From contig JWZX01003181.1 in NCBI GenBank assembly GCA_001275005.1, forward strand, positions 1 through 44,051: DNA of 44,051 nucleotides. The letters run 5' to 3'. Position numbers and translations under genes: made by a program. The first letter of the stretch is position 1; every line of letters begins with the position of its first letter. The notes beneath the pieces are model-generated. The model worked only from the letters and a program-made list of their open reading frames with translations, did not search any database and was not told the DNA's origin. Below, piece after piece: positions 1,584 through 42,278 of this stretch. Source of the DNA: Chrysochromulina tobinii (taxonomy: Eukaryota).

Positions 1584-4500
1584 TCACAGCGTGAGAAGTC
1601 TAGATATCTCGAGCGGGAGCTCATCCCGACCCGCGGCTGTGTGCGACAACCTCGCCGCATCCAGGGCGCTCCTATCCATATCATCCTTCGTTGCAGCAGC
1701 TGCGCCAGCCTCAAGAAGCGCCATCACCGCCGCATCGGCGCCCTGATCAATGGCGTCGCTGCCGGACGCACAACGTCCACAAGGCGCCTGAGCGGACGCG
1801 GCCGCCGCCACGTGCAACGGCGTCTGCCCGAATTGATCGCGTCTGTTCGGGTCGGCCGCAGCCGCGAGCAGTAACTGAACGAGCGGCGCGGCCGCATTGG
1901 GCGGCAGGCGCGCGGCCGAATGCAGCGGCGTCTCAAGGGGCAGCGAAGTGTTCTTGCCGTGCTTGCGCGCCGACATGGGGACGCCGTTGACCGATGCGCC
2001 CGCACTGATGAGCAGCGCCGCCGCCGCGTGCTGCTGGTTCACAACCGCCCAATGGAGCGCCGTGCGATGCCACCGATCGCGCAGCTCGATCGTTGGCTCT
2101 CGTCGATTGGAAGTTCGCTCCTCACGCCCATCGTACTCGACGCCCGCCTCGATCAGCCTTCGCAGCGCACCCAGACAGCCGGCGCGCGCTGCCGAGTGCA
2201 ACGCAGTCTGCCGACGGTCATCTCGCATGGCAATAGGTGCACCTGCATCGAGCAGCAGCTCGAGCGCGCCACGGGATACATCGGACTGGGCGGCCAGATG
2301 CAGCGGCGGCAGGCCCGCTGTCGAGATGAGCGTCACGGGAGCCGACGCCCCCAGCAGTGTGTGCACGAGCGCCGTGTGCCCCGCCTGCACGGCCAAATGC
2401 AGAGGGGGTAGCCCTCGCTCGTTGAGGATAGTGTCGCCACGTAACGCGCGCGATGCCCGTGGTGCGCAGTCCGCACCAAGCGCAAGCGCCGTGCGCGCGA
2501 GCACGTCGTTGCCATAGCGCGCGGCGAGGCTGAGCGAAAGCTGCAAAGTGGGCCGCGTGAGCGTGGGATTCGTCAGCTCGGAGCTCAGGCGCATGATCTC
2601 ATCGATGAGCTCTTCCTCCTCGGCGGCGGCGGCCTCGCACGCGGCCGCCGCTTCAGCTGCGTCGAGGATCGCGGCAGCGGCGGAGTGATCCTGTTCGGGT
2701 GCCTTATGAGCCGGAGCCGCTTTGCCACGCGCCTCGACATCGGCCTCGTGTGCGGCGGGCGCTAGGGCCGCCGTCGGAGACGCAGCCTCGGATGCCGCCG
2801 CCTCGTCGCCGGGCACACACACGCCATGCTCGGCCAAGAAGGCGGCGTACCTGTAGAGCAAGGGCAATTGTAACACCGCTTTGGGAGACCACACACCGCG
2901 CAGCAGTCCGTAGTCGGCGGTGTCGACGTCCTCCTCGTCATTGCGTCGAGAGGAGGGCGCTCGCGGCGCATGTGTGCTGACCAGCGTGAAAGCGAGCTTG
3001 CGCGCCACTTGGAGGGCTCGAATGGAGTCCCCGCCGAGCCGCACAAAGTCTGAGCGCCGACCGAGGCGCTCGAGACCGAGCTTGAGTACGTCGGCCCAGA
3101 CCGCTGCGATCGCTGCCTCTAGTGGATTGAGTGCTGGGGCGGTCAGGGGCTGCGGCGGCGGCGGTGGTGGCGGCGCCCCAGCTCGCGCTACGCCCGGCGC
3201 CGCACCCAGCCGCGCCGTGTCGGGCGCATCAACCAGCCGCGCGTCCTCGGTTTTGTCGATGCGCCTGCCGGTACTCGTCGTGTCGCTGGGGGTGCCCTCT
3301 ATTCCGGCGAGGTGCGCTCGCAACATGGGCGCGAGTGCGATGCGGTCGAGCTTACCAGTAGGCGTGAGAGGCATCTTGATGACGAGCACAATCTCCGACG
3401 GCGTCACAGCCGCTGGCAACTCGCGCAGCGCATGCAATCGGAGCAGCGCCACCGCCGCCGCCTGCAGTAGCGCATCATGGCGGAGGCTGGTGTCACCGCG
3501 GCCAGCGCCGCCGCTGCCGTTCCCGCTGCCGCTGCCATTCCCGCTGCTGCTGCTGCTGCCGCACTTGCCATCAGTGGCAACGTCCTTGTCTGTCCGCCTC
3601 TCGACTGCGGCTACCAGTCGCCCGTCGATGACGAGGGCCGCCGCATGGACGACAAGTGGCTGGCAGCGCGTGAGCACCCCCTCCACCTCGCCCAGCTCCA
3701 GCCGCATGCCGTTGAGCTTCACCTGCTGATCGCGACGACCCAGCAGCCGAAGCGAAGGGGCGCCGTCAGGCGTGCATGCCCATGCCGCCACATCGCCGGT
3801 CAGGTACACACGGTAGCCGAGCGTCGGATGCTCAACGAAGCGCTCGGCCGTCAGGGCGGACTGATTGAGGTAGCCTTGCGCGAGCTGGGGGCCACCGATG
3901 GCGATCTGCCCAGTGCATGCAATCGATCCCGCCGCCTCTCTCGCGTTCGAAGCTTCCACACCCGAACCCATCGCCGGCGGCTCAATCACGCGCAGGGCAT
4001 CGTCCAGCAACAGGAGCGTACACCCGGGCAGAGGTGCACCGAGTAGTGCGCCCTGCCCATCATCAGCCACAATCGGAGCCGTGGCGACGCTCGTCACGGC
4101 GCTCGTGCGGCGCGGGGCCGTTACCTCATAAGAGCTCTGGTAGACAGTGCACTCGGTGACCCCGTAGATGTTGCACAGGCGTCGGCGGCGGCGCGTTGGT
4201 GGTCCGTGAGCCTCGTCGAGCTCCAATGCCATCCGATGAGCTCCGATGAGGTCGTCCGATGAGCTCCGATGAGCTCCGATGAGCTCCGATGAGCTCCGAT
4301 GAGCTCCGATGAGGTCGTCCGATGAGCTCCGATGAGCTCCGATGAGCTCCGATGAGCTCCGATGAGCCTCGTCGAGCTCCGATGCCCATCGAGCGATCAG
4401 CGCAGCGCTCATGCGCTCACCTCCGAGGGTGACCACCTCGAGATGTGGGAACGCGGCGGGAGATCCTCCAACGGTCGTCCAGAGCGCAGGGGTGCTGCAC

Positions 4501-5216
4501 ACGTGCGTCGCTGCTGAGGAGGCGAGAAGGGCGCCCAGGGACTCACGCACGCTCGTGCGTGACGGCAGGCAGAGTGTAGCACCCGCGAGAAGCGCGGTCC
4601 ATGCCTCGCCAATGCACGGATCGAACGACACTGCCGAAGTTAGTAGCACTCGACTCGAGGGGCCGATGGCATGCGCCACTGCGTTGGCCTCGGCATAGGC
4701 CACCAGCGAGCCCTGGCTGACGGCAACACCCTTGGGGCGACCCGTCGAACCGCTCGTGTAACACACGTACATGAGCGTGCCTCGTGCCGAAGGCGCAAGT
4801 AGCGCACGAGCCACGTCTGCACAGCCCGATGGCGACGTCAGTTGCACTGCGGATGATGCACGGCACTGCACGTGTATGATTGGCAAGGATTCCGGCAGAG
4901 CTGGTCCATGCGGAGCCACGAGCAGCATCGCCATAGCCCCAGAGTCGTTCAGCAGGTATCGCACGCGATCCTGCGGCAGCGACGGGTCCACGAGCAGGAA
5001 GGCGCATCCTGCGCGCTGCGCAATCAACTGGCAAAGCATCAACTCGGCACCCTGCTCGGCCATGATCGCGACGACTGGGCACTGCTGCGGCTGCTCAGCA
5101 GCCGCTGCTCCTGCCGCTGCTTGCAGCCGTGGAACGTAATCATCTGCAGCGTGCAGGAGCGCCTCCAGCGTGACGGACAGAGGAGAGCCGGCGGGCTGTG
5201 TGAGGTCGAGCAGCAT
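1584..5216 (-). CDS. NRPS-like protein: adenylation domain - peptidyl carrier protein - ankyrin repeats
   Basis: A-domain motifs YTSGSTGRPKGV (A3), FDP (A4), NIYGVTE (A5), GPQLAQGYL (A6), YLTGD (A7), GRRDQQVKLNGMRLELGEVE (A8), TGKLDR (A10). PCP motif FVRLGGDSI. C-terminal ankyrin repeats (GLPPLHLA x2, TALHSA, TALHWA, TPLHSA, GQTPLHVA). Possible in-frame GC-AG intron 4212-4367. Confidence 0.92.
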   Translation of the reverse strand: MLLDLTQPAGSPLSVTLEALLHAADDYVPRLQAAAGAAAAEQPQQCPVVAIMAEQGAELMLCQLIAQRAGCAFLLVDPSLPQDRVRYLLNDSGAMAMLLVAPHGPALPESLPIIHVQCRASSAVQLTSPSGCADVARALLAPSARGTLMYVCYTSGSTGRPKGVAVSQGSLVAYAEANAVAHAIGPSSRVLLTSAVSFDPCIGEAWTALLAGATLCLPSRTSVRESLGALLASSAATHVCSTPALWTTVGGSPAAFPHLEVVTLGGERMSAALIARWASELDEAHRSSSELIGAHRSSSDDLIGAHRSSSELIGAHRSSSDDLIGAHRMALELDEAHGPPTRRRRRLCNIYGVTECTVYQSSYEVTAPRRTSAVTSVATAPIVADDGQGALLGAPLPGCTLLLLDDALRVIEPPAMGSGVEASNAREAAGSIACTGQIAIGGPQLAQGYLNQSALTAERFVEHPTLGYRVYLTGDVAAWACTPDGAPSLRLLGRRDQQVKLNGMRLELGEVEGVLTRCQPLVVHAAALVIDGRLVAAVERRTDKDVATDGKCGSSSSSGNGSGSGNGSGGAGRGDTSLRHDALLQAAAVALLRLHALRELPAAVTPSEIVLVIKMPLTPTGKLDRIALAPMLRAHLAGIEGTPSDTTSTGRRIDKTEDARLVDAPDTARLGAAPGVARAGAPPPPPPPQPLTAPALNPLEAAIAAVWADVLKLGLERLGRRSDFVRLGGDSIRALQVARKLAFTLVSTHAPRAPSSRRNDEEDVDTADYGLLRGVWSPKAVLQLPLLYRYAAFLAEHGVCVPGDEAAASEAASPTAALAPAAHEADVEARGKAAPAHKAPEQDHSAAAAILDAAEAAAACEAAAAEEEELIDEIMRLSSELTNPTLTRPTLQLSLSLAARYGNDVLARTALALGADCAPRASRALRGDTILNERGLPPLHLAVQAGHTALVHTLLGASAPVTLISTAGLPPLHLAAQSDVSRGALELLLDAGAPIAMRDDRRQTALHSAARAGCLGALRRLIEAGVEYDGREERTSNRREPTIELRDRWHRTALHWAVVNQQHAAAALLISAGASVNGVPMSARKHGKNTSLPLETPLHSAARLPPNAAAPLVQLLLAAAADPNRRDQFGQTPLHVAAAASAQAPCGRCASGSDAIDQGADAAVMALLEAGAAAATKDDMDRSALDAARLSHTAAGRDELPLEISRLLTL
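4207..4380. repeat. 10-bp tandem array (GATGAGCTCC)n bracketed by an 18-bp direct repeat; candidate 156-nt GC-AG intron (minus strand)
   Basis: TGAGCCTCGTCGAGCTCC at 4207-4224 and 4363-4380 (offset 156). Interior is GATGAGCTCC repeats with two GATGAGGTCGTCC variants. Confidence 0.9.
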
Positions 5217-5239
5217 TACACTCTCTAGATTTCAGAAAA

Positions 5240-6968
5240 ATGGTCAGCTCAGAACAGTTCAAGACGCCCGCCGCGCGACTTCGCAATCTCAAGATGTGTC
5301 GCTCAATTTCGACGACTTCGAGTTCGAAAGTGTGGTTTGGGCGAGGTTTCGGTAAGTGCGGTTTGGGCTCACGGTCGTCCTCACTGACCTTGGAGGACGA
5401 CGACACGGCCGCGGACTCGTGGCTCAAGTTCTTGACGAGGAGCTTCACCGCCAATCGCCGACGGCAGGCGCAACCGTGTGACACACAAAGTGAACCCGCC
5501 TCGACACTCGAAGAGCGCCAGGCAGGGTCATCATCCACCCCAGCAGCAAGTTACAAGCGGAGCAGATCCACTCTTGTTGCTAGCCTACCAACACCGCTTG
5601 GTGCCCATGCCGGGCGCGTCGGCCTTGCCAATCTGGGCAACACATGCTTCATGAACTCCGCATTGCAGTGCCTGAGCCACACGCGGCACTTGACATCATA
5701 TTTTCTCAGTGAGGATGCCACTTGGGAGACTGAGCTGAATGTGGACAACCCGCTCGGTTCGGGCGGCGCGCTCGTGCGCGCGTACGTGGACGTCCTCAAG
5801 AGCCTGTGGTATGGCGAATACTCCCATGGGCCTATCTTCACTCCCACCCGATTCAAGCAGACGCTAGCGGACTTCTCACCGATGTTTTCGGGGAATGAGC
5901 AACACGACGCGCAGGAGCTGGCCACCTTTCTGCTCGACGGGCTACACGAGGATCTCAACCGCGTGGTAGGCAAGAAGCCGTACATCGAGGACCTGGGTGA
6001 GCTCAAAGAGGGCCCTCGATTGGTGGAGGTCGCTGATTGCATGCTGATTGCCTCCCTCATCAGGTGAGCTCAAAGAGGGGCAGGACGAGGAGCGCGTGGC
6101 CGCTGAGTCGTGGGGTAACTACCTGAAGCGCGACCGTTCGGTGATTGTCGACCTTTTCCAGGGTCAGCTCAAATCAACGGTCACGTGCACAGAGTGTGGC
6201 TGCCAGAGCAGCAAGTTCGAGGCGTTCATGTACCTCTCGCTGCCTGTGCCGCCGCCAAGCAAGGACGGCAAGTCACTCACGCTGGACGACTGCCTCCGAG
6301 AGTTTACCAAGGAGGAGCAGCTCGACCCCGAGAACATGTGGAGATGCCCCAGGTGCAAAGACTTCCGCCAGGCGAGCAAGCGCTTCGAGTTATGGAAGAT
6401 GCCGCCGCTTTTGTTAGTGCACTTGAAGCGCTTCTGTTCCAATGGGCGCGGCCAGCACGTGAAACGCGCCCAGGCGATCATCACGCCCCTTAATGGGCTC
6501 GACCTGAGCGCGTACACCGGTGGCTCGCTCGGAGTGTCCTCTGCGGCCACTTACTCGCTGTATGCGACGTGCAACCACCATGGCACCATGCACCGAGGCC
6601 ACTACACTGCACACTGCCGCGGCGCTGGGTTTGGTGGCAGCCAAGGGGACGCGGCGGACCGCAGCAAGTGGCACACATTGGACGACGGTAGGTGCCGAGA
6701 GGTGAACGCGAGCAAGGTGATCGATGGCTCAAATTACATCCTCTTCTTCGAGCGCGAGGCCGCCTTCGGGCTTCCGAGGCGGCAGACACTCAGTCGCCCG
6801 GAGCTGTGGCCCTTCCGGCTGTCGGTCATCCCGAAGGATATGCTGCCTTCGAAGGATATGCTGCCTTCCCGGCTGCGCGATAGGCAGCAATCATCCGCAA
6901 GGAGCCACTGGTACTCCTTGTTCAAGGCTTGGAGCTTTGGGGATGCTTTTTCTACTCGTAGCAGATGA
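5240..6968 (+). CDS. Ubiquitin-specific protease (peptidase C19); exons 5240-5996, 6064-6968
   Basis: Cys box GLANLGNTCFMNSALQCL, QHDAQE, zinc-finger CTEC/CPRC, LHLKRF-like VHLKRF, His box NHHGTMHRGHYTA. A 67-nt GT-AG intron joins the two ORFs in frame (1662 nt, 553 aa). Start codon uncertain. Confidence 0.93.
5997..6063 (+). other. Spliceosomal intron (67 nt, GT-AG) with 17-bp direct repeat
   Basis: GTGAGC...CTGATTGCCTCCCTCATCAG; removal restores the frame (DLGELKEGQDEE). GGTGAGCTCAAAGAGGG at 5996-6012 and 6063-6079. Confidence 0.9.
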
Positions 6969-7596
6969 GGAGCTACCTGGCTCTGAAGCACGCAGCATCT
7001 GCCTAGTCAAGAGCTCTCAAGGCGTTTACTTGATCTAGTAACTCTGGCTATTGAGGCCATGAAAACACTAAGTCTATACACGTGTATTTCTCCTCGGCCG
7101 TAAAGAGAAATAGGAATTTGAAATATCGACACCGACCACCGAGAGGTGAGCGGACGGTGTGGTGAGCGCGGGGGGACCGCAACGAAACTGACCGGACTGA
7201 CTGACTGATCGAGTATGAAAACTCAAAACTGATGAGAATCCAACGTGGTACAGTACCGGTGTCTTTAATCCTAAACTTTTCGGCCGCGGCTTCGGTCGTC
7301 GCCAATTGGGGCGGTAAAACCTAAAAGGCGGTAGAGGCGAGCAATTGTGGGCGAGATGAAGGCACGCGCCGCTGACACGTAGCGGCCGGCGGTGCGGCCG
7401 GACCCCAAATGAGCTCGAGACACGAGAGGCGGAGACTGGCGCGTGCGCGCTACGGCCCCGGCGAAGCCCGAACTCGCGTAACTCGCGCGCTGCGCTTGGC
7501 GCCTTGGCGGCGCAACGTCGACTCGTCGAGAGATCATGAATGCCCGCGCTTCGCGCATGGAGCGAGAGCCAAGCGAGCGACACTGACGCTGGGCTA

Positions 7597-8070
7597 ACGA
7601 TGAGGCTGCCTGATCGAACTACCGACAAAACCGGTAAGTTGTTTCGCCCGTAACTTTTTAACTTCCCAAGCCCTGCGAATACTTTTGGGACCGAACGCGA
7701 AATCAACCGTGGTGGATATGGAAGAGCAGGCCCTCGCGAGCCTCGAGGAGGCTTTCAACGAGCTCGACGAGAGCGGTTCAGGCACCCTGGGCATCGAGGA
7801 GTTCCAGGATCTCCTCTTCGCCTGCGGCAACACGGCGTCGCCCGACGAGGCGCAGGCCATGTTCAGGAGCATCGATTCCGATGGCTCAGGCGGAATTGAT
7901 AAGGAGGAATTCATCGCGTTCATGTGCGGTTTGAAGGACGACGAGGGAGAAGAAGTCGACTCGGCGCTTGGGTCAATGATTCTGCGAGCCCAGCTGCAGG
8001 CGAGCCTGCTTTCTCGCATGATGGCACGTCGCTTGAAGGCGGCGGCTGCTGCTCGCACCGGCGGAGTCGA
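7597..8070. repeat. Inverted duplication, right copy (partner 1-455; may extend further, left copy truncated by window)
   Basis: Reverse complement matches 1-455, with a 3-nt indel (DEGEEVDSA vs DEGEGDSA) and a divergent patch just upstream of the ATG. Confidence 0.95.
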
Positions 8071-9419
8071 CGATCGGCAAGAGAACGAGTCACAGTCTAT
8101 CGACATAGAGTTCAAGATTGGCGACCCTAAGGTGCAGGGCGGTTCTCGTGATGGCCGTCCCAAGAAGTCGAGGTTTTTCTTATCGTCGCTGACGTCCTCA
8201 TCGGAACCGGCCACCCCAAACCTCGGCATCAAGGCCCTACTCGAGTTCTTCCCCGGCCGTACTGACGACTGGCCGAGCAAGGTCGAGATCGCATTCACCC
8301 TCCCGCGCCGCGAAGGAGTTCCCAGAGCGAAAATGGAACAGCTCGTGGCTGACTGGCTCCAGATCCTCGAGCAAGCCAAGGAATATAAACCCTTCAAAGA
8401 CGCATTGAAGGCAGCCAATCTAGACATGGGTAAGTGGAAGCACGCGCTTTCGGAGATGGCGCTCACCTTTAGTGTCATCGTCACCGGCAAGGCCGTGGTC
8501 GAATTGCAGAGCTACATCAGAAACCCCATGGAGATTCCTCTCGACGAGGGCCTTCCAGTCAAAAGCTCGATCAGCGTGGAGGCAAACCTGGGCCTCTCAG
8601 TCGACGCACTCACCTCGGAGGACGAGGCGGTGTGGCAGCAGACAGTGCTGTCCCACCTGGACAAGGGCACCTTCTTCAAGGTGCATGCAGATTTGGCTGC
8701 GGGCCTCACCCAGGCCGTGAAAAAGCTCCCGGACAGCATACTTGGAAGAGAATTCGCAGACGGCTGGCTAAAATACTTCTCCCGCCTCGGTCGTTACGCC
8801 AAGCTGGAGCTGGGTTTCCTGCGCACACAAGACGCGCTCCGTCACCTTTTTGAGGAGAGGCAGAACATGCAGATTCCTGATCCGGAAGTGCGGCGGTTTG
8901 TGCAATCCCTCCGAGATCTGAAGGTCGGGCACCTCGCAACCTTTGCACAGCTCGTGCCTCGGGCAATCGGGTACGCTCTCTGGGCTGTGCACACACTCAG
9001 CACGGCGCCCGGTCCCAGCATGCATGTGTCTCACCACGGCGCCCGTACATTTCCCCAGGTACGCTCTCTGGGGTGTGCAGCAGAACGCGTCCCTCATAGA
9101 GCAGCTCGAGATGATGCTCTTCTTCCCGCCAGCCAAGTGGGCCGAGATGCTCAACAACTTGTCGTCTTGCGTGACCGGCCTAGGCGAGCTCAAGGTCTCC
9201 CTCAACCCTGGCGTGGTGGCCACCCTCAGCCTCACAGGCCTCGACATACTCAAGGCGCTTAAGACAGCGCCACTCAAGCCGGAGGATATCAAGCGGGATG
9301 AGATGTTGGAGTCCGATTTTGAGCAACTGTTTCGCAAGCTGTTCAAAGAGGGCAACGCGACGATGGCGACCACAACGAACCCACAAGCGGGGCGAGGGCT
9401 GGCGTACATGGAAGCATGA
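7718..9419 (+). CDS. EF-hand protein with a long uncharacterised C-terminal region; exons 7718-8970, 9059-9419
   Basis: EF loops DESGSGTLGIEE and DSDGSGGIDKEE. ATG position conserved with the paralog. An 88-nt GT-AG intron joins the ORFs in frame (1614 nt, 537 aa). Confidence 0.85.
8971..9058 (+). other. Spliceosomal intron (88 nt, GT-AG) with 22-bp direct repeat
   Basis: GTACGC...ATTTCCCCAG; splicing gives AIGYALWGVQQN. GGTACGCTCTCTGGG(C/G)TGTGCA at 8970-8991 and 9058-9079. Confidence 0.88.
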
Positions 9420-9960
9420 TCTAGACATGTACGCACCCGGTCTTTGGCTACATCTTCAAGCCGAACGCGATGGATGTCAAGAACACAAATTCAACCGCTC
9501 GCAGACCCAGACGATTGCCCCACCCTCGTGCCTCGAGTCTCTCGTGGAGACCCACCTGATGGCGGTCTGAAGAGAGAAGAGCGACCACGGATCACTTGGA
9601 CTTGCGATCGAATCCGATCCGCGATCGGTAGGGGGTTCTCCATACACCATACTGAGCTGAAAGGTGAGCTGTACATGTAAACAACTCTGATCGCGCTCCG
9701 CCACGGGCTGCTGAGACCTCGGACTCCTGAGTCGTGAGTTTGCTGTGCACATTGCAATTTGCATGCATAATTTGTGTTCGCGTATTTTGGTCCATAGAAA
9801 CGAAATAAACAGTACACTGAAGAGTCAGTGCGACGCATATCTTCATACTAGTACATAATCTATAACGGTAGATTTATTCTGCGATATTGAGGCGAGAGAG
9901 TTTGACATCACGCCATTTTTTCACCCGGCTGTTAGGTATGTCACAGAGTTAGGGCTGCCT

Positions 9961-21752: not shown

Positions 21753-24044
21753 TCACACCTTGTAATCGCATGAGCTTTCGCGTGATGACTTTTTGAACGA
21801 GCCCTTGCTGCCCATCCTCGCCAGGAGCGAGGGACGCGGCGCCTCGTCATCGCGTTCGCATGAGCTTTCGCGTGATGACTTTTTGAACGAGCCCTTGCTG
21901 CCCATCCTCGCCAGGAGCGAGGGACGCGGCGCCTCGTCATCGCGTTCGCGTGAGCTATCGCGGGATGACATTTTGAACGAGCCCTTGCTGCCCATCCTCG
22001 CCAGGAGCGAGGGACGCGGCGCCTTCGCCGGCTTGCCTCCGACGATCTGCACCTCGACCTCGGCGACGGCGTTGGCACCGGCTGCTGCGGCTTCTAATCG
22101 CCTCAGTTCCTCCTCATCCTCGGTCGCGAGAGGCTCCAGTGACCGCAGGCGCCTCAGGTCGGCGAGGCGCGCGGAGCGCGCCGCCTTGTTCTTGGCCGGC
22201 AGCGCCTTCCATTTAGCTGCGGCCTTGATGAGCGTGAAGCCCACGTTCATCTTCTTCAGGGCGTTCTTGATGTCGTCGTCCGAGATGTCTAGAGGCAGAT
22301 GCTCCTGCTGGAGCATGGGCTCGGCGCCGTTGTTTGTGACCCACGCGTCCTGTCGTAGCTCCGCGACCGTCGGCCGTTGCCGAGGGTTCTTGTGGAGCAT
22401 CCTGCCTAATATGGCAATCAGCTCGGCCGACAAGTGCGGCGCGAGCTTTGGCGAGTCCTCCTTGATCTGCCGCCAGATATCTGGCATATTGTCGGACCAG
22501 AACGGCATCTCCCCACTCGTGAGGTACGCGAGCGTCACGCCCGACGCCCATACGTCCGCCGGCCGCCCGTGAAAGGGCTTGCCCACGAGCATCTCCGGCG
22601 CGAAATAGGGCGGCGTGCCCGTTGCCTTGAGGATAGAATCGTCGTGGCGTGGCTTCGCCTTCTGGCCGCCGTTCTTGCCCGCCTCGCTCGCCTCGCTCGC
22701 CACGACGTTGACGCACAGCTGCGACACGCCAAAGTCGAGCAGCTTGGCGAGAGGCACTAGCGGCCGATCGGGGACGCTGGACTCTTTGGAGAACCTCGAG
22801 CGTCGAGGTGTTGAAGGTAAGCGCTGCGCCACCATCGCCGCCGTCACTGGCGCCGCTCCAGCCGCCTCTCGAGGTGTTGAAGGTGAGCGCTGCGCCACCA
22901 TCCCCGCCGTCACTGGCGCCGCTCCAGCCGCCGCTCCAGCTGCCGCTCCCGCCGCTCCCGCCGCCACCGCTGCCAGATCGCGCGGCAACGGGGGGATGCT
23001 GGAGTTGATGCTGGGGGCCGGCTGAGCTCTCTGCCCTGGTGCTGACGGCGGTGTGCTGCTCGATGCCGGGGGCGCTGCCTTGGGCTCGGCATTCGGCTCG
23101 AGCTCGACAGCCGGGGCGACCGCCTCAGCCTTGAGCTCCGCTATCAGTTGACGTCGAAGCAATCGGGCGGCAAAAGCCCTCTGCGCCGACTGGAGCCGTG
23201 TGGCTGCGCCGTCGGCAGGCGGCGCGTCTGCATTCGCAGCCGAGAGGCTCTCCGAGGATGACCGAGCGCGTCTATCACGTCCAGTGAAACTGTCACCGGC
23301 GCTCGTCGTCGCCTCGCTCAGCCCATCGATGGCGGCGCCGAGCGCACTGCTGGTGCTGCTGAACAGCGTGCCCAAAGTGTTGGTCAGCTCCAAAAGGCCA
23401 CCCTTTTCTCGCGCTCGACTCCACATCGGTCGCTCGGAGAAGACGATGTTCTCGGGCTTGATGTCGCGATGCAGGATGCCGTTGGCGTGCAGGTACTCGA
23501 GGCCGTCCAGCAGGTCGCGGAACACGCTCCGCGCGACCGCCTCGTCCAGGTATGTCTGGTCAGGCGGCAGATTGTCCGGCTCCATCACCTGGCCTCCGAG
23601 GAGAAGCTCCATCACGAGAAAGATGCGATCGCCCATCGGGTCATCAATGACCTCGAAGAGGTGGATGCAGTTCGGGTGGCGCACGTGCTTCATCACGGCA
23701 ATCTCTTTGAGCACGGCTTCCGAGACCGAGGTGCACTGCTGCGTCTGCGGCTTTCCAATCTGCTTCGGCTTGCCTAGCCGCTTGGTTTTCTCGCGAAGCC
23801 GGCCCTTGTCCATCAGCTTGATCGCGACCACGTCGCCCCGCAATTCGTCGGATGCTTGGTATACGGCCCCGAAGGCACCCTTGCCGAGCAATCCCTTGAT
23901 CCAGTACTGGTTGACGCGCTTGAGCATGGTCGAGCCCGACTTAGTCTCGATGTTCTCCACCGTTTTTTCGATCACCCCCTCATGCTGCATGCCGCGACTC
24001 ACTTCGCGCCGCTTGATCTGCTTGCAAGAGCAGGCGGCACCCAT
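21753..24044 (-). CDS. CaMKK/GRIK-like Ser/Thr protein kinase with large internal insert
   Basis: VNQY...LGKGAFG, VAIK, EIAVMKHVRHPN...EVIDDP, HRDIKPEN, DFGVS, GTPPYFAPE, ADVWASG. Likely start MGAACSC (acylation motif). Confidence 0.9.
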   Translation of the reverse strand: MGAACSCKQIKRREVSRGMQHEGVIEKTVENIETKSGSTMLKRVNQYWIKGLLGKGAFGAVYQASDELRGDVVAIKLMDKGRLREKTKRLGKPKQIGKPQTQQCTSVSEAVLKEIAVMKHVRHPNCIHLFEVIDDPMGDRIFLVMELLLGGQVMEPDNLPPDQTYLDEAVARSVFRDLLDGLEYLHANGILHRDIKPENIVFSERPMWSRAREKGGLLELTNTLGTLFSSTSSALGAAIDGLSEATTSAGDSFTGRDRRARSSSESLSAANADAPPADGAATRLQSAQRAFAARLLRRQLIAELKAEAVAPAVELEPNAEPKAAPPASSSTPPSAPGQRAQPAPSINSSIPPLPRDLAAVAAGAAGAAAGAAAGAAPVTAGMVAQRSPSTPREAAGAAPVTAAMVAQRLPSTPRRSRFSKESSVPDRPLVPLAKLLDFGVSQLCVNVVASEASEAGKNGGQKAKPRHDDSILKATGTPPYFAPEMLVGKPFHGRPADVWASGVTLAYLTSGEMPFWSDNMPDIWRQIKEDSPKLAPHLSAELIAILGRMLHKNPRQRPTVAELRQDAWVTNNGAEPMLQQEHLPLDISDDDIKNALKKMNVGFTLIKAAAKWKALPAKNKAARSARLADLRRLRSLEPLATEDEEELRRLEAAAAGANAVAEVEVQIVGGKPAKAPRPSLLARMGSKGSFKMSSRDSSRERDDEAPRPSLLARMGSKGSFKKSSRESSCERDDEAPRPSLLARMGSKGSFKKSSRESSCDYKV
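21766..22024. repeat. 90-bp tandem repeat, about 2.9 copies, in kinase C-terminus
   Basis: Encodes APRPSLLARMGSKGSFK(K/M)SSR(E/D)SS x3. Confidence 0.95.
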
Positions 24045-24787: not shown

Positions 24788-24820
<33 letters not shown>

Positions 24821-34659: not shown

Positions 34660-34990
34660 TGCCTGTGGGCTACGAGTGCACGAGTGAGCGTGCCGAGCAT
34701 GTCGAGGCGCTCTACTTTGCTATTGGACAGCCTACAGTCGCCCCGCTTCGAGCTCGCGGTGCGACAGAGGCACCCAAGATCCACACACACTGTGGTCGCC
34801 TCATCCCGTCAGCCGTGTAGTGTGATGTGCCTGAGCTGGTGGGCTACAGGTGCATAGAGCGGCGTGCCGAGCACTCCGAGGCGATCTACGTTGCTATCGG
34901 AGAGCCTACACTCACTTCGGCTCGAGCTCGCGGTGCGAAGGATGCACCCGAGATCCACACACCATGTGGTCGCCTCATGTCGTGCGTGTG
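34660..34990. repeat. Diverged tandem duplication, 174-bp period
   Basis: GTGGGCTAC at 34665 and 34839; shared CGTGCCGAGCA, TCGAGCTCGCGGTGCGA, AGATCCACACAC, TGTGGTCGCCTCAT. Confidence 0.85.
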
Positions 34991-35130
34991 CTGGCGTGCT
35001 GGCAACCGCCACTGAGGCTCGCCCAACCTGTAGAGACCCTCTGATGAGAGTATGACGAGTGTCTGTATGCTATTACTACAATGTGAATTACAACAACGAA
35101 GAGAAGAATGCTAGAACACCGGCGACACCT

Positions 35131-36162: not shown

Positions 36163-36382
36163 CCCAAAAACGGGAGGTAGGCCGCTGCTCCCGTTGGGTC
36201 CGGAGATACACGGCCCAAGCGAGACGGTGTGGGTCTGTGTAAACGAGTGATTCGATCACTCATACTTGCGTCCTTGAAGCTCCGTCCTTCGCTCCGTCCT
36301 ATGGATTCCGTTCGTCTCACCTAGTACCTGCCTCTCCTTCAACCGTCTGCATTGGTACGAGCATCGCACCGGCGGCTGCTGC

Positions 36383-37174: not shown

Positions 37175-37682
37175 GAGGAAAGACCCTCCGTCGCGATCTC
37201 GCGAGAAAAATGACGAAAGCTACGATCACAGTTTGGGTGAAATGCTGGTGTGCGCATGCTTACGGGTATAACTGACACAAGACGATCAGACACCTACGCA
37301 TTGTACATACGACGACACGGTGCGTGTCCAGGTCTGTCCGTCGGTGTGTTGAGATTCATCTATAACTTTCACACGACAGCGGGGACAGGGACAGGCACAT
37401 CACGTCACACCTTTCGCGCCGACATGCACACATAGACACCCTTGCCACACACGCACAACATGAAGTACGTGAGTATGCCACATCTCACCATCACACACCA
37501 CGCCGGCATCACCACACCAAACACTCACGCCAGCATACTAGTAGAGAGTAGAGCACTCACAGCCAAGGCACATAGTAGAGCGGAACGCGCCGCGAATTCG
37601 CCGCGAGTGCACACTACCACTTCACAGAGATGGCGAGGCAGCGGCGCGCATGCACTCGTGACGAGTGCCACACGTACGTTGC

Positions 37683-38590
37683 CTAGTCCACTTGCGCCTT
37701 CAACTCCTCCAGAACGCTCGGTTTGTTGGTCAACTCTGCGAACTCTGCGAAGGTGATGACGTCGTTGCCGTTCTTGTCGATAAGCTGGATGATGCGGTTG
37801 AAGACGGGGTCGGGCATCGACTGCATGTTGAACATGACCAAGATCCTCTTGAACTCGTCTGCCGAGAGGAAGCCATTGCAGTCCTCGTCGAGGAGGCGGA
37901 AGGCACGGCGCACCTCCGTGAAGCGATCCTTCATCTTGGAGACGAGGAGACCGAACCAGTACGCGGTCTCCTTGCTCGAGGCGCGCGGCATCGTCGGCTG
38001 CTCGACCATTGGCGCACTCGCAGGCGCCGCCGCCGGCGCGTCGTCGGCCGAAGGGCGGCGGCTATTCTTGCGCAGGGGCGGAAGCTCACCGAAGCCGCCC
38101 GGCCCGCGCAGCGGCGGTGGCTGCAGCTCGTGGTTCATAAAGGGCTTCCAGTGGATCCTGGTTGGCGCGCCAATGTTGTCCTTGCATGCCGCGTAGTGCG
38201 TGTTCGCCACGACCTCGGGCGGCACCTCTACGTTGGCAATCTTAGCGGCGAGTATCAGCTCCCGTGTGCTGCACATGCCTTCCGGCGCGCGCTTGCTGAG
38301 CACATCCTTCATGATGCGGCGCTGTTTGTTGTGGTCGAGGCGAACTGTGCAGGAGGAGCAGGTCGGGGCGTAGGCGCACTCGTCGCATCAGTGGGATTTG
38401 CAAACTGCATGTGGACTGCCACAAACGGGGTTCAATCCACTCGCGTCGCACGTTGGGCTTCGGCGACCATCTCTTCCTCTGTATAGCCCTCAAGCGACGG
38501 CCGACTGTAGCCGACTGTCGAGGGGCGTGGAGTGCCCCGTGTAGGGGTGCCCCGTGGGGTGCTCCTTGGGGAAAGCGGTGCGAAGGCCAT
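37683..38590 (-). CDS. EF-hand protein; exons 38590-38452, 38344-37683
   Basis: RRAFRLLDEDCNGFLSADEF and DKNGNDVITFAEF. A 107-nt GTGCGA...TGCACAG intron joins the upstream ORF in frame (801 nt, 266 aa). Confidence 0.85.
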
Positions 38591-38910
38591 TATGAGCTGA
38601 CGCGAGCGAGTGGACTCCGACCGCTTGGACGGTCTGTCGGTCACTGGTCAGCAAAAAAAACAGCTCAAAAAAACATGAACGGAAAATGCATTTCAGACAC
38701 GAATTTGGGCCAAGCGCCCGATCGTCACGCTTGGATGCAACTAGAGACCGCGCGGTGATGTGACGTTTTGTTGGTTTTTTCAATGTGGTTTGTTAATGAC
38801 CGAGATTTTGAGTAATGGTGCGGCACACACTCGTTCACGTGCGCACGGCACACTCTTCCGGTTCACATTACTTTACAAGGGTCCGTTGGTGTGAACCGAG
38901 CACAAGATTT

Positions 38911-38942
38911 TTGACTTGACTTGACTTGACTTGACTTGACTT
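38911..38942. repeat. (TTGAC)6 microsatellite
   Basis: TTGAC repeated six times just upstream of the ABCG start. Confidence 0.9.
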
Positions 38943-38987
38943 CGACGAACTTCACACGAGCAATTCGCCGCCGTCGTGAGCCCAGGG

Positions 38988-41024
38988 ATGCACCAGCACC
39001 ACGGGCTGCTCGCCGACCACGTCGATGGCGGCAGCGTGCCCGCCATCAACGATGCCGGCGTCGAGCTCAAGGCCTCGGGTGTTGGCCAGACGGTCAAGGT
39101 GCGAGGCGCCGCCCGCACCATCCTCTCCGACGTGGACGCGACCTTCTCGCCGGGCAATTTGACTGCGCTCATGGGCCCGTCGGGCGCTGGCAAGACGACG
39201 CTCCTCTCCATCCTTCGAGGCGGCCGTTGCAGCATGGGGTCGATGGCGATCGACGGCGCACCGTACACAACGGCCACGCGCAAGCTCATCGTGACCGTTC
39301 CGCAGGACGACGTGCTGCTGGCCGGGCTGTCGCCTCTCGAGATGCTTGTGTATGCGGCGCACCTGAAGCTGCCGCGCGCGCTCGGGCGGGCCGCCAAGCT
39401 CGCGCGCGTGCAGAGGGTGCTCTCGGAGCTCAATTTGGAGGGCGAGGACCAGCGGACGCGCATCGGCTCGGTCGACGCGCGCGGCCTTTCGGGCGGGCAG
39501 CGCAAGCGCGTCTCAATCGGGCTCGAGCTGCTGACCAACCCGGCGGTGCTACTGTGTGACGAGCCCACGAGCGGCCTGGACGCCAAGATGGCCGCCGACG
39601 TCGTCGGCATCCTCCGTGCGCTCTCACAGCAGCAGCGGCGCACCGTGGTCGCCACCATCCACCAGCCCTCGTTTCAGCTGTTTGCGCGCTTCGACTGGCT
39701 GCTGTTGCTGAGCAAGGGGCGCGTCGCGTACTCGGGCGCCGCCCTCAACGCCGCCGCGCACTTTGGCGCCCTCGGCTTCCCCACGCCCCCGCACGAGAAC
39801 CCGGCAGACTACATGATGCGCCTGCTGCAAGACGTGGAGGAAGCACGCGGTCTTGACCTGGTCGCTGCATGGGCGGAAGGCGCGGCGGCCATTTCGCAGC
39901 GCGCCGCGCATCGGCTGCCTTCCTGGAAGCCGGTTGGCGTAACGGTGAGCATGCTCGGCGGCGGCAGCGGCGGCGGCGACAACGGGGGCGACGGCGGCCT
40001 TTTGGAGTTTGCGTACCGTACGTCCGTGCTGTGCCACCGAACGCTGTACGACTCGTTCAAGGACCCCGCAAAGACCCTCAAGACTGTCATCCTCAAGAGC
40101 ATGGTCGGCCTGCTCTGCGGCACCATCTGGTTTGGGCAGGGGCGCTCGGGCTCGTATGGCGACATCTTCTCCATCACGGGTGCGCTCTTTATGTGCGTCA
40201 CCACCTCCACGCTCGAGGTGCTGCTGGACACCGTGCTCGAGTTCCCACTCGCGCGTGCGCTCCTATTGCGCGAGCTTTCCAACGGCCACTATTCGCTGCG
40301 CAGCTACTACGTCGCACGCACCGTGGCCAACTTTTGGCAGGCGTGCGTCAACACGGTACTCGTAGCACTGCCCGTGTACTTCATGGTGGGCCTCTCGCTC
40401 ACCGCGCGGCAGTTTGGCATCTTCGGGGGCTGCCTCGTGCTGCTTGAGCTCATCGGCTCGTGTATCGGCATCATGATCGGATGCACCTCGAACGACATCA
40501 ACGACGCGCGCACGCAGCTCGTGCCCGTGCTCGCACCGCTGCTCATCTTCTCAGGCTACGTGGTGCCGTACAACAACATCCCCGCCTACTTCACATGGGC
40601 CTACTACGCCTCCTTCTTCCAGTACAGCTTTGCACTGCTCATGATCAATGAGTTCGCGGACCGCACCTTTACGCGCGACTGCCCGGCGCAGCTTGCCGAG
40701 CAGCAGGTGCTCGCGGCGCTCGAGGAGCGGCTCGCACCCTACTGGCCGCCGCTGCCACACAATGGCACGTGGCCGGCACACAATGGCACGTGGCCGGCAC
40801 ACAATGGCACGTGGCCGCCGCCCGGCCCCTGGAGGAACTGGACGTGGCCCCCGCAGCTCCAGTTCACGTGCACTGGCCGCGAGTACCTCCAATTGGTGGG
40901 CATGTGGCCGAACAAGTTCGGCGCGATCTCAAACTACTTTGCCATCTTGGCGGGCTACCTCGCGCTCGCGTTTGTGGCCACGTACGTGGTGCTGTACCGC
41001 GTGACGACGATGAAGATGCGCTGA
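38988..41024 (+). CDS. ABCG (White-type) half transporter
   Basis: Walker A GPSGAGKTT, VPQDD, signature LSGGQRKRVSIG, Walker B LLCDEPTSGLD, TIHQP, ENPADY; C-terminal ABC2 membrane domain. Confidence 0.95.
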   Translation: MHQHHGLLADHVDGGSVPAINDAGVELKASGVGQTVKVRGAARTILSDVDATFSPGNLTALMGPSGAGKTTLLSILRGGRCSMGSMAIDGAPYTTATRKLIVTVPQDDVLLAGLSPLEMLVYAAHLKLPRALGRAAKLARVQRVLSELNLEGEDQRTRIGSVDARGLSGGQRKRVSIGLELLTNPAVLLCDEPTSGLDAKMAADVVGILRALSQQQRRTVVATIHQPSFQLFARFDWLLLLSKGRVAYSGAALNAAAHFGALGFPTPPHENPADYMMRLLQDVEEARGLDLVAAWAEGAAAISQRAAHRLPSWKPVGVTVSMLGGGSGGGDNGGDGGLLEFAYRTSVLCHRTLYDSFKDPAKTLKTVILKSMVGLLCGTIWFGQGRSGSYGDIFSITGALFMCVTTSTLEVLLDTVLEFPLARALLLRELSNGHYSLRSYYVARTVANFWQACVNTVLVALPVYFMVGLSLTARQFGIFGGCLVLLELIGSCIGIMIGCTSNDINDARTQLVPVLAPLLIFSGYVVPYNNIPAYFTWAYYASFFQYSFALLMINEFADRTFTRDCPAQLAEQQVLAALEERLAPYWPPLPHNGTWPAHNGTWPAHNGTWPPPGPWRNWTWPPQLQFTCTGREYLQLVGMWPNKFGAISNYFAILAGYLALAFVATYVVLYRVTTMKMR

Positions 41025-41053
41025 CATGAACTCAAGCAGGCAAGCTAGCTTGC

Positions 41054-42278
41054 TTGAACTCAAGCGAGCGTCATCTTCGTGTTTCGAGGACTTTAGTCAC
41101 CTCGGCCGTGGCACTTCTCCCTGCTTCGCTTCCGGAATCTGACTCCGTCTCACTGGCGCCCACGTCACTGGCCAGTGAATTGGTGGGCGGCGATAGAGAC
41201 GAACACGGGTGCATCCCATCTGCGGGCTACTCCTGGTGCCAGCCGCTCGCCCAGTGCATCCGCGCCTGGGAGACGAACTGCACGACGCCAACATCCTCGG
41301 AATTATATGTCGCCAGCGACAACGACGCTGGCTCGCCGGGTGCGGCGGTCGCCGCCTCGCCCTACATGATGAGGCCTATTTAGGAGCGCCGCTCGTCCAG
41401 GCGCGTGTGCTGCTGCTGCCCAGCGGCCGCCGACTGGCTTACGCCATCGAGCACCCGAGCCCCGATCAAACCAATCCGCGGTAGAGCTCACTATCCAGCT
41501 CGGGCGCCGAGACACGATCGGCATCCAGCAAGACGCGACCGCCCTCCTCTTGGGCAACGTCCTCCCGTCGCTCTTCTTTGCCGACCTGCGCACAGTGCAG
41601 CAGCTGGGCCACGTGGTGCAGGCGCAGTTGCTCTCCCATTTTGGGATCCGCGAGCTCGTCTTCCTCGTGCAGGGGACGGCCCAACCGCCGGCCAACGTCT
41701 CCAAGAGCATCCTCACCTTCGTGGTTACAGATGTGGTTACAGATGTGGTTACAGATGTGGTTACAGATGTGGTTACAGATGTGGTTACAGATGTGGTTAC
41801 AGATGTGGTTACAGATGTGGTTACAGAGCATCCTCACCTTCGTCGACTCGATGCCCGAGCTCGTTGACAAGCTGTCCGCCGCCGAGTTGAGCACCTACGT
41901 GGCCTCGACGCGCGCGGGGCTGCTGCAGAAGCCGATCTCGATCGAGGACGCCCAAAAGGGCTTGGGCACCTCCCTGTTCACTCAGATCAGCGAGAACTGC
42001 ACGAGGACCTTCGACGACAACCTCGCGCTCGCGGCGGCGCTGGTCGACATCACGCTCGCCGATGTGCGTGCGCTCGCCGAGGCCACCGTCGACCTGTACA
42101 AGGTCCATACGGCCGGCTCCTTGTACAGGTCTACGGCCGCAAGCAGCAGGCAATGTCCGCAATCCCCGCCTTCCCCCCTGACTACGCGCAGGTCGAACGC
42201 GAGGCTTACTTCCGAGAGGCCATCTATGCTGGGGGTGCCATCCCGTGGAGACACAACGTGGAGGGCGCAGTGTTATAA
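41054..42278 (+). pseudogene. Frameshifted insulysin/pitrilysin (M16) C-terminal fragment preceded by a GGDRDEHGC Cys motif
   Basis: HPSPDQTN/(fs)AVELTIQLG...LFFADLRTVQQLGHVV...LVFLVQG...LLQKPISI...ITLADV...(fs)RLLVQVYG. Needs about three frame changes plus removal of the 41721-41826 array. No HxxEH domain and no in-frame ATG. Could be assembly error. Confidence 0.65.
41704..41843 (+). repeat. 12-bp tandem array (GTGGTTACAGAT) x8.8 bracketed by a 19-bp direct repeat; candidate GT-AG intron 41721-41826
   Basis: AGAGCATCCTCACCTTCGT at 41704-41722 and 41825-41843. Array begins GT and ends CAG. Confidence 0.9.

Follow-up and report, generated by a model that had tools for sequence, protein, structure and literature searches.

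The origin of new spliceosomal introns is a long-standing question, and introners are their best documented source. A related kind of insertion, the target-primed reverse transcription (TPRT) of non-LTR retrotransposons and SINEs, leaves target duplications of variable length, up to tens of bases; such an insertion has one sequence-specific junction, its other junction being made through microhomology.

Introners are intron-creating transposable elements, some of which bring the 3' splice site and recruit the 5' site (Gozashti et al., PNAS 2022 PMC9860276; PNAS 2025 PMC12130899). In the available text of these two surveys the duplications are 2-9 nt and the classified introners come mostly from known transposon types, with ~5% of the classified families being non-LTR-derived (PMC9860276, PMC12130899). 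The flanking repeats are given as 3-9 bp in the 2022 text (PMC9860276) and as 2-5 nt in the haptophyte rows of 2025 (PMC12130899), and one introner insertion in Aureococcus adds codons (12 nt) (PMC9860276, PMC12130899). The introner-like elements of Symbiodinium and Polarella glacialis (classes 4/5, 6/8/10) are described, in the sections available, as carrying the 3' splice site and obtaining the 5' site from the target-site duplication (bioRxiv 10.1101/2020.10.14.339549). The neointrons of Daphnia pulex are attributed, in the accessible part of that report, to the repair of staggered double-strand breaks, with repeats of 4-12 bp and mostly unique fillers (PMC4202315). The assembly studied here, GCA_001275005.1, was scanned in both surveys; the 2025 table gives 0 introner families for it (PMC12130899), and in the available portion of the 2022 supplement C. 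tobinii appears only among the genomes scanned (PMC9860276).

The window analysed here comes from the haptophyte alga Chrysochromulina tobinii and is one contig of 44,051 bases. A first-pass annotation had described four short inserts bracketed by long direct repeats. All four repeats are present, with identities of 18/18 (site 1, 4207/4363), 17/17 (site 2, 5996/6063), 21/22 (site 3, 8970/9058) and 19/19 (site 4, 41704/41825), and they lie well above chance: when exact direct repeats at 30-300 nt spacing were counted, dinucleotide-preserving shuffles of the window (n = 100) gave a mean of 0.03 repeats of at least 15 nt and 0 of at least 17 nt, against 47 and 42 in the real window, where the majority fall within tandem arrays. 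Two other introns, predicted on the minus strand (GTAAGG...CGCAG, 86 nt, and GTGCGA...CACAG, 107 nt), had been named as repeat-free controls and behave as such, their junction matches being just 6/22 and 3/22. All four sites carry the same type of duplication; sites 1 and 4 are only putative introns. The features are as follows.

4207..4380, minus strand: site 1, in-frame insert of 156 nt in an NRPS-like adenylation domain, with an 18-nt duplication (4207-4224, 4363-4380) around a 10-mer array.
5997..6063, plus strand: site 2, GT-AG intron of 67 nt in a ubiquitin hydrolase (USP) gene, family A, seen as an RNA joint.
5997..6012, plus strand: upstream target copy of site 2, 16 nt (17 if the shared G at 5996 is counted), donor GTGAGC, identical to 6064-6079.
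6033..6063, plus strand: family A cassette end of site 2, with CTGAT motifs, a pyrimidine tract and CAG; exact 31-nt matches in several loci.
6064..6079, plus strand: exon copy of the duplicated target of site 2, by sequence identity with 5997..6012.
8971..9058, plus strand: site 3, GT-AG intron of 88 nt in an EF-hand gene, family B, which RNA contig ends fit.
8971..8991, plus strand: upstream target copy of site 3, 20/21 identical to 9059-9079 by sequence comparison.
9014..9040, plus strand: family B core of site 3, a variant with one extra base; 84 other contexts at <=3 edits.
41704..41843, plus strand: site 4, M16-type peptidase gene, in which a (GTGGTTACAGAT) x 8.9 array is bracketed by a 19-nt duplication (41704-41722, 41825-41843).

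The fillers between the repeats had been called mutually unrelated, two of them micro-tandem arrays. Both statements hold: no similarity between the four was found by blastn-short, and sites 1 and 4 have fillers that consist of 14.7 units of period 10 and 8.9 units of period 12, respectively. Each filler matched only itself within the window among the blastn-short matches listed (motif searches were also run), and Rfam gave no match at E up to 1 on 3900-9400. The idea that the fillers are one-off sequences fails for sites 2 and 3, which are both members of dispersed multi-copy cassettes, and for this reason the two are assigned to an introner-like mobile system and not to separate repair accidents.

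Site 2 is a spliced GT-AG spliceosomal intron. RNA contigs of runs X15 and X16 connect 5995 to 6063, skipping 67 nt with GT..AG ends (17 letters fit on either side), and an X14 RNA contig stops at 6012 and then continues with 13 letters of exon 2. The NCBI model KOO23552.1 is colinear over the junction, where it reads EDLGELKEGQDEERV. DNA contigs break at the cassette end of site 2, with many differing flanks and a bin depth of 3610 vs ~43. The agreement of element ends with splice boundaries is observed by RNA at this site; the other family members were judged from sequence.

The P0125 ORF, identical to the window, runs into intron 2, and in a 94%-identical relative an ORF of 498 aa extends contiguously over site 2 (P0126, a cluster of 45). 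The contigs of the P0126 cluster, 9996 and 5662 nt, have the same sizes as those bearing opposite-strand NRPS ORFs and are therefore taken as genomic. The absence of intron 2 from the relative is read from ORFs and contig sizes, and could also reflect a precise loss there.

At site 3 the ends of RNA contigs fit the GT-AG intron. An X17 exon contig stops at 8984, the first difference between the repeat copies, and contigs of X17 and X15 begin at 9058; the X17 contig that retains the intron has a depth of 12.6 vs 87-126 for the exons. Contigs of X14 and X16 cross site 3 unspliced, and no site 3 splice joint was seen among the RNA contig alignments listed. In DNA run X11 the form without one base at 9029 has a summed depth of 1400 over 8 contigs. 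Intron 3 is common to many strains, including a diverged one, and 11 of the 15 listed ORFs of a 28-member cluster begin inside its cassette; not all four inserts can thus be very recent. An exact look-up of two EF-hand gene ORFs gave no match in the protein collection.

The site 1 insert, bounded by its duplication, is a derived one and is missing in a relative. On the minus strand it can be drawn as a putative GC-AG intron (4367 down to 4212); the ORF 1584..5231 continues through it, and all three filled alleles encountered, with inserts of 23, 52 and 64 aa, keep the frame. The 10-mer unit of the array (TCGGAGCTCA on the minus strand) almost equals TCGGAGCTCGA in the neighbouring exon. Four RNA runs, whose coverage at this site is small, gave no splice joint there. 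These three observations (frame kept in all alleles, a unit derivable from exon, no RNA joint) suggest that site 1 is perhaps no intron: local duplication and slippage are the likely source of the insert, and it may be translated. Among the listed NRPS relatives 14/15 are without the insert and retain one ELDEAH copy, as do the ORFs of the 94%-identical relative, and the insert is also absent from more distant NRPS homologues, including that of Prymnesium parvum. The differences at site 1 and at intron 2 appear to reflect insertion, as opposed to loss from the relative.

Site 4 probably records the type of event seen at sites 2 and 3, with another filler. The coding frames up- and downstream differ by +1, so removal is needed to keep the frame, and a GT-AG intron of 106 nt is predicted at 41721-41826. 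No GT/GC...AG pair takes out exactly 121 nt, which makes scarless canonical removal impossible; splicing at filler-internal sites, predicted from the sequence, would leave five duplicated codons, with SILTF present twice. The codon-adding Aureococcus insertion, as given in the available survey text, is a parallel to this prediction. Exon 1 of the gene matches positions 1-58 of 100 of the PF22456 profile. A protein search returned just the annotated model Ctob_002524, which begins inside the array, and an 86-aa fragment beginning downstream, and an exact look-up of four ORFs around the site gave no match in the protein collection.

The annotation had proposed scarless canonical removal at three sites. 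This stands for site 2 (GT-AG, by RNA), agrees at site 3 with the ends of RNA contigs (GT-AG) and applies to site 1 solely as a putative GC-AG intron on the minus strand. Its wider proposal, intron gain with a long target duplication in which the duplicated exon furnishes the donor, is supported at sites 2 and 3, where the exon copy does supply the donor and whose footprint is seen again across two sequence families; sites 1 and 4 are putative introns.

The two families were followed in related metagenome DNA, in a set of 133 loci (782,915 nt) picked by the family A 19-mer at the end of the site 2 filler, which is present in at least 140 metagenome stretches. Family A is dispersed and has the shared 3' end …CTGATTGCCTCCCTCATCAG; family B reads GCATGCAAGTGCTCACCACGGCGCC…CACAG. 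In these 783 kb there are 181 unique junction contexts of family A and 85-95 of family B at <=3 edits or substitutions; the 23-nt core of family B recurs with <=3 edits in 85 contexts, and the genes in question are unrelated. The loci were selected by the family A motif, and the fixed 3' end of that family is in part circular.

The exon-copy footprint was scored by comparing the first 16 exon bases with sites 25-300 nt upstream, at a threshold of at least 13/16. It is present at 88/181 family A junctions, against 0/181 for the reversed query and 23/181 for a query 60 nt downstream, and at 61/92 family B junctions, against 4/92 and 16/92 for the same two controls. Of the junctions below 13/16 (93/181 in A and 31/92 in B) some are diverged copies by eye, and others are array-internal units or copy-less. 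The median copy length is 23 nt in family A (n = 104) and 25 nt in family B (n = 69), with an overall range of 10 to >80 nt, and the median intron lengths are 76 and 75 nt. The upstream copy begins with GT or GC in 75/104 (A) and 41/69 (B) cases, and it is perfect in 42/104 and 20/69, respectively, and decayed in the others. If a young copy is defined as an exact match of at least 16 nt with no other cassette before it, family A has 31 of them, of 16-82 nt, and family B has 25, of 16-70 nt; a few of these are whole-unit tandem copies with nothing between. A first shifted-position control for the junctions was inflated by tandem arrays.

The left end of the duplication has an AG|GT(G) consensus and the right end is without a strong one; at the family A insertion sites (n = 57) the counts are A 27 at -2, G 45 at -1, G 46 at +1, and T 41 and C 12 at +2. 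An AG|GT consensus is also expected from splicing selection alone, which could fix the left end. The cassettes end in CAG right at the exon copy, the family A 10-mer repeats lie on the 5' side, and no 3' poly(A) or simple-repeat tail was found on cassettes of either family. In family B 14 exon copies abut the cassette start, five of which are whole-unit tandem copies; the other nine overlap it by 0, 1, 2 and 3 nt in 1, 1, 5 and 2 cases, so that 7/9 informative copies show a 5' junction microhomology of 2-3 nt, GC(A). Another cassette precedes 25/82 family A copies.

With regard to the reading frame, an open frame over 240 nt is found in 24/38 family A cases after exact removal vs 6/38 with the intron kept. 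The same test does not discriminate in family B (34/48 removed vs 30/48 kept), and a unique-frame test had 7 and 3 usable cases only. A naive sample-wide test of GY...AG junction repeats (220/4131 vs 198/4131 in the shifted control) gave no separation and is uninformative because the genome is full of minisatellites. Empty sites were sought with 177 joined-flank queries, 91 of them free of cassette motifs; none found an empty site on a different contig, and full-length matches came solely from overlapping loci of the same contigs.

The site 2 and site 3 families are an introner-like system with unusually long target duplications. As in the Symbiodinium and Polarella elements, in the available description of these, a multi-copy element in one orientation ends at the 3' splice site, the upstream target copy acts as donor (theirs begins G-H), and splicing restores the message. 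Unlike those elements, whose duplication is fixed at 4 or 8 nt and many of which have inverted repeats, the duplication here is variable (10 to >80 nt), the cassettes are ~20-50 nt and the 5' junction shows microhomology. In a family from a Chrysochromulina sp. MAG, as given in the available survey rows, the duplication is 4 bp and the 5' site belongs to the element, unlike in the cassettes described here. The variable duplication with one fixed and one free end, and the 5' junction microhomology, are like a TPRT insertion; unlike TPRT elements, the cassettes have no poly(A) or simple-repeat 3' tail, and they are far shorter than known SINEs. We know of no reverse-transcriptase partner for the cassettes. 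No account of the exon-copy footprint in haptophytes was found in a search of open-access literature.

The introns at sites 2 and 3 are best described as a multi-copy cassette that follows a 16-21-base copy of the downstream exon, and in our judgement a copy of the cassette was probably placed at an AG|GY site, the target being duplicated in the process. A cassette made of a branch-point-like motif, a pyrimidine tract and CAG would enter at AG|GY and duplicate the target, and the upstream target copy would then serve as the donor. The AG|GY end would be set first, and microhomology would join the other end at a variable distance, in the manner of a template-switch copy-in or of target-primed reverse transcription; this is the insertion enzymology that we infer. 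After insertion, the 10-mer arrays would grow in place, and units of target copy plus cassette would duplicate in tandem. The footprint is likely the trace of a mobile element that creates new introns in C. tobinii. Reverse splicing of excised introns, which predicts no duplication, was set aside.

Several other origins can be weighed against this copying of a cassette. A purely local one, in which exon segments are duplicated in tandem and expanded by replication slippage and the shared 3' motifs are convergent splicing signals with no mobile element, draws on the abundance of short tandem arrays in the genome sample, on the site 1 10-mer and its near identity with the adjoining exon, on a similar 12-mer array in locus L036 made from its own flanks, on the frequent tandem units of target copy and filler (the 25/82 family A copies) and on array lengths that vary from strain to strain. 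It is nevertheless improbable, given that an exact 19-31-nt cassette end is common to at least 140 stretches, that the 23-nt core of family B in 85 contexts at unrelated genes indicates copying and not convergence, and that the fillers of sites 2, 3 and 4 are underivable from their flanks. A whole intron formed as a copy of the adjoining exon, as in the AGGT tandem-duplication model, is likewise not what sites 2, 3 and 4 present; the site 1 unit does resemble the exon. We regard it as very improbable that these are old introns precisely lost in the relative, with the intron/exon identity held by a splicing-related constraint. Intron 3 is indeed found in many strains, one of them diverged, and the polarity at site 2 is provisional; however, the duplicated segments are locus-specific and range from perfect (42/104 in A, 20/69 in B) to decayed, as expected from neutral ageing, and distant NRPS homologues, including that of Prymnesium parvum, are without the site-1 insert.

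Another competitor, of the Daphnia type, is a repair of staggered double-strand breaks that captures short DNA or cDNA fragments present in abundance; the fill-in of long 5' overhangs would give the duplication, and no dedicated element enzyme would be needed. The variable duplication length, the microhomology at the 5' junction of the cassette, the unrelated fillers of sites 1 and 4 and the attribution of the exon/intron repeats of Daphnia neointrons to staggered breaks (PMC4202315) all fit such a capture. Still, we hold it to be unlikely here: two cassettes with constant ends are reused repeatedly, the duplication has one fixed AG|GT end and one free end, and the Daphnia repeats, in the accessible part of the report, are 4-12 bp (PMC4202315), against medians of 23-25 nt in the two families, with some >50. 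The four sites themselves differ from those neointrons in their repeats of 17-22 nt and in that two of the fillers are dispersed families. That the repeats and fillers are an assembly artefact, absent from the real DNA, is scarcely credible, as contigs of DNA run X11 span 4338-6045, 6041-7763 and 8321-9361 with zero differences, spliced and unspliced forms are both present among the RNA contigs, and ORFs of other assemblies reproduce the site-1 insert as well as introns 2 and 3. DNA contigs do break within the site 1 array (3001-4284, 4338-6045), and the array lengths of sites 1 and 4 are therefore provisional.

If the cassette-copying reading is extended beyond the window, a new class of intron-making element can be tentatively proposed, which we put forward as a possibility somewhat short of an even chance. 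Half-intron cassettes of ~20-50 nt (branch point, pyrimidine tract, AG) would be copied by a target-primed or template-switch process into AG|GY, duplicating 10-80 nt of exon, so that each intron would build its own 5' half and donor; two families and their hybrids may then make up a large share of the introns, and surveys would have missed them since just the 3' third is shared. If the shared element holds no more than the 3' splicing signals and every intron takes its 5' half from the host exon, there would be a simple route from any AG|GY to a working intron, one that would account for protosplice-site patterns with no need of special targeting. Each gain could be dated by an internal clock, the decay of its exon copy, and the long, variable duplication together with the junction microhomology points to a testable mechanism. 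The surveys, in the parts available, report no introner family in C. tobinii, and similar systems may be missed elsewhere by the same blind spot.

An all-against-all BLAST of the loci gave five diverged locus pairs, of which one, L002 and L004, was aligned. The two differ solely in the number of 10-mer units, and the array length varies between the strains by 80 nt of 10-mers.

The four direct repeats of exon sequence that the first-pass annotation had reported around short inserts are all present in the window, at exactly the coordinates claimed.

Direct repeats in the window (positions of the two copies, location, identity, filler)
4207/4363: site 1, NRPS-like gene (minus strand), 18 of 18 letters identical; filler a micro-tandem array (10-mer x 14.7)
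5996/6063: site 2, USP gene, 17 of 17 identical
8970/9058: site 3, EF-hand gene, 21 of 22 identical
41704/41825: site 4, M16-type peptidase gene, 19 of 19 identical; filler a micro-tandem array (12-mer x 8.9)
11137/11265: other pair, 13 nt (de novo scan)
33311/33352: other pair, 15 nt (de novo scan)
22803: 66-bp tandem duplication (de novo scan)

Shuffling the window 100 times with dinucleotides preserved yields on average 0.03 exact direct repeats of at least 15 nt with a spacing of 30–300 nt, and none of at least 17 nt. The de novo scan detected few further non-tandem pairs of this type; the remaining repeats sit inside coding repeat regions.

Site 2 is a real intron. RNA contigs from two runs (X15 and X16) join position 5995 to 6063; the 67 nt skipped are bounded by GT..AG, and 17 letters at the joint can be assigned to either side. 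A contig from a third RNA run stops at 6012 and continues with 13 letters of exon 2, and the annotated USP protein encoded in the window (KOO23552.1) reads EDLGELKEGQDEERV across the junction. Splicing therefore takes out one repeat copy together with the filler, and the first bases of the upstream copy serve as the donor, GTGAGC; scarless removal is thus confirmed at this site by the joint in two runs. The ENA ORF P0125, which is identical to the window, enters the intron and then stops, and in a 94%-identical relative a contiguous 498-aa ORF (P0126, 45-member cluster) spans the junction. Since members of the USP and NRPS clusters of this relative agree in the lengths of their longest contigs (9996 and 5662 nt), the two genes are divergently oriented, and the organism's ENA contigs among the collected loci are metagenome genome assemblies, the relative's ORFs are taken as genomic and probably devoid of intron 2. 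The difference may also reflect a precise loss of the intron in the relative.

Sites 2 and 3 have multi-copy fillers. In DNA run X11 contigs break within the site 2 filler, with many different flanks; the summed bin depth is 3610 at this filler vs ~43 elsewhere, and 1400 for a one-base variant of the site 3 filler. Metagenome contigs (mixed-culture assemblies and lake metagenomes) were scanned for the last 19 nt of the site 2 filler; at least 140 stretches matched, and the matches listed gave 133 loci comprising 782,915 nt. Family A, to which site 2 belongs, consists of a copy of the first bases of the downstream exon, degenerate 10-mers (CTGATGACCT / CTGATTGCAT type), CTGATTGCCTCCCTCATCAG and the exon. 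In family B, which includes site 3, the exon copy is followed by GCATGCAAGTGCTCACCACGGCGCC, a pyrimidine-rich stretch and CACAG, and 85 unique contexts with at most 3 edits are found in the same 782,915 nt. The two introns named as controls in the first-pass annotation contain no family A or B matches. Hybrids with A-type 10-mers ahead of the B core were also found. Those at metagenome loci L009 (minus strand, ~7519–7712), L030, L037, L056, L063 and L070 start with gtacgttgattgccactgatgacctgcctt, followed by the B core; different genes carry this near-identical 5' part, and the hybrids look like a composite third family. The terminal 20-mer of family A, CTGATTGCCTCCCTCATCAG (6044–6063 in the window), has CTGAT at its start and the reverse complement, ATCAG, at its end. 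The antisense 10-mer unit (AGGTCATCAG type) contains AG|GT and CAG, so splicing of the arrays might be possible in either orientation.

The exon copy recurs throughout both families. The first 16 exon bases past each cassette were compared with every position 25–300 nt upstream. At least 13 of 16 bases match in 88 of 181 family A junctions and 61 of 92 family B junctions, vs 0/181 and 4/92 for the reversed query and 23/181 and 16/92 for a query taken 60 nt downstream, a control inflated by tandem arrays. Exact copies of at least 12 nt occur at 55 of 181 family A junctions vs 111 of 2000 random CAG sites. The extended copies have a median length of 23 nt in family A (interquartile 18–38, n = 104) and 25 nt in family B (16–37, n = 69), with median intron lengths of 76 and 75 nt, respectively. 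Perfect copies account for 42/104 (A) and 20/69 (B), the remainder being decayed, and GT or GC stands at the start of the upstream copy in 75/104 and 41/69. At clean family A sites the frame is open over 240 nt in 24 of 38 cases after exact removal vs 6 of 38 when the intron is retained; the same test does not discriminate in family B (34/48 vs 30/48).

The two ends of the duplicated segment differ. Among 57 family A sites, the exon before the upstream copy has A at -2 in 27 and G at -1 in 45, and the copy itself starts with G (46), followed by T (41) or C (12) and then G (30), while its far end shows no strong consensus. Family B insertion sites resemble these. The exon copy abuts the GCATGC start of the B cassette in 14 copies, five of them whole-unit tandem copies; in the other nine the exon and cassette overlap by 0, 1, 2 and 3 nt in 1, 1, 5 and 2 cases, respectively, which points to microhomology over 2–3 nt or to a preference for GC at this junction. 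Whole units (target copy plus cassette) follow a preceding cassette in tandem in 25/82 (A) and 7/53 (B). In two near-identical lake strains (L002:2300-2480 and L004:1250-1350), one family A intron has identical flanks and differs by 80 nt of 10-mers, so that the arrays appear to expand and contract in place.

At site 3 the exon contig of the deep poly(A) run (X17) ends at 8984, the first difference between the repeat copies, and contigs of X17 and X15 begin at 9058. The X17 contig bearing the intron has a depth of 12.6 vs 87–126 for the exons; in two further RNA runs contigs pass unbroken through the intron. The contig ends and depths fit the scarless splicing proposed here, with removal of 8971–9058, but no joint is among the listed contigs. 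An ORF starting within the site 3 cassette belongs to a 28-member cluster, and 11 of the 15 members listed, including a diverged version, start inside it. The intron is common to many strains and older, in agreement with its one repeat mismatch. The 5' part of the EF-hand gene has an inverted paralogue (window 1–396 vs 7604–8000) with a nearly identical translation; the part of this paralogue that would correspond to site 3 falls outside the contig.

The first-pass annotation had explained the inserts by intron gain with a long target duplication, through a TPRT-like or repair-based mechanism, and the data support this in part. A conserved cassette is accompanied by a locus-specific exon duplication of variable length, with one end fixed at AG|GY and the other free, and by microhomology at the junction. 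A mobile cassette that makes introns with a long target duplication is the probable source. Copying-in would begin at the AG|GY end and the other end would then be joined at a variable distance, much as in target-primed reverse transcription or in a template switch guided by microhomology; a TPRT-like route is proposed only tentatively. Plain break repair is disfavoured by the repeated use of two cassettes, each with constant ends. The duplication length, which is not fixed, speaks against a cut-and-paste DNA transposon, and the absence of a 3' tail and of a known partner element against a classical non-LTR element.

The system works in the manner of an introner. In Symbiodinium and Polarella, introner-like elements also carry the 3' splice site, but there the donor is supplied by a duplication of 4 or 8 nt (GHNN or GHN6; bioRxiv 10.1101/2020.10.14.339549), whereas here the duplication is variable, with a median of 23–25 nt. 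The exon/intron repeats of Daphnia neointrons are also shorter (4–12-bp; PMC4202315) than the family medians of 23 (A) and 25 (B) nt. In a 2022 survey the flanking repeats measure 3–9 bp, and one family, from a Chrysochromulina sp. MAG, has a 4 bp repeat and brings its own 5' site (PMC9860276); C. tobinii is among the genomes scanned, with no other mention in the part of the supplement examined. The supplementary table of a 2025 survey has 0 introner families for C. tobinii, and its haptophyte rows comprise only E. huxleyi and a Pavlovales species; the duplications measure 2–5 nt in those rows for which the automated call returned a value (PMC12130899). In the portions of this literature considered, we found no precedent for the long variable duplication, the very short 'half-intron' cassette or the microhomology.

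Site 1 lies in a gene with an adenylation domain, a carrier domain and ankyrin repeats (Pfam), whose ORF continues uninterrupted through the insert. Of the canonical splice pairs, only GC-AG (4367 down to 4212) would take the insert out exactly; no joint was seen in the RNA contigs of four runs, which cover little of the site. The frame is preserved in all three filled alleles, with inserts of 23 aa (one member of the relative's cluster), 52 aa (window) and 64 aa (C. parva model). In the other 14 of the 15 members listed for this NRPS cluster the stretch is IAQWAS-ELDEAH-GPPTL, with a single repeat copy and no insert, and the insert is absent from more distant homologues, Prymnesium parvum included. 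The 10-mer unit almost equals the adjoining exon sequence and, on the plus strand, is also similar to A-type 10-mers. A locally derived, possibly translated minisatellite is somewhat more likely than an intron.

The coding frame shifts by +1 from one side of site 4 to the other, and so the 121-nt offset must be resolved. No canonical splice pair takes out exactly 121 nt; GT41721...AG41826 (106 nt) would preserve the frame, and this predicted intron would leave SILTF twice. Codon-adding introners are described for Aureococcus (PMC9860276). The deposited model Ctob_002524 (41731–42075), matched at 100% identity in a protein search, has its start ATG inside the 12-mer array (MWLQMWLQSILTFVD...), and the annotation thus appears to split the peptidase gene here. 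An array at metagenome locus L036 (minus strand, ~9634–9713; (GCCGTTACAGAT) x 6) has GTTACAGAT in common with the site 4 unit, although it is built from its own flanking sequence.

The C. tobinii genome (59 Mb, 16,777 genes) has ~1 intron per gene (PMC4580454). Coding minisatellites are frequent in it; the window contains a 90-bp x 2.9 tandem repeat at 21766–22024 and a 21-bp x 3 repeat at 40756–40817, where an ABC-transporter ORF encodes HNGTWPA x 3 close to its end. The copies of the 66-bp duplication (22803–22936) are 95% identical, each with a donor-like AAG|GTAAGC or AAG|GTGAGC, and may represent intron formation by tandem duplication; this area is covered by RNA contigs.
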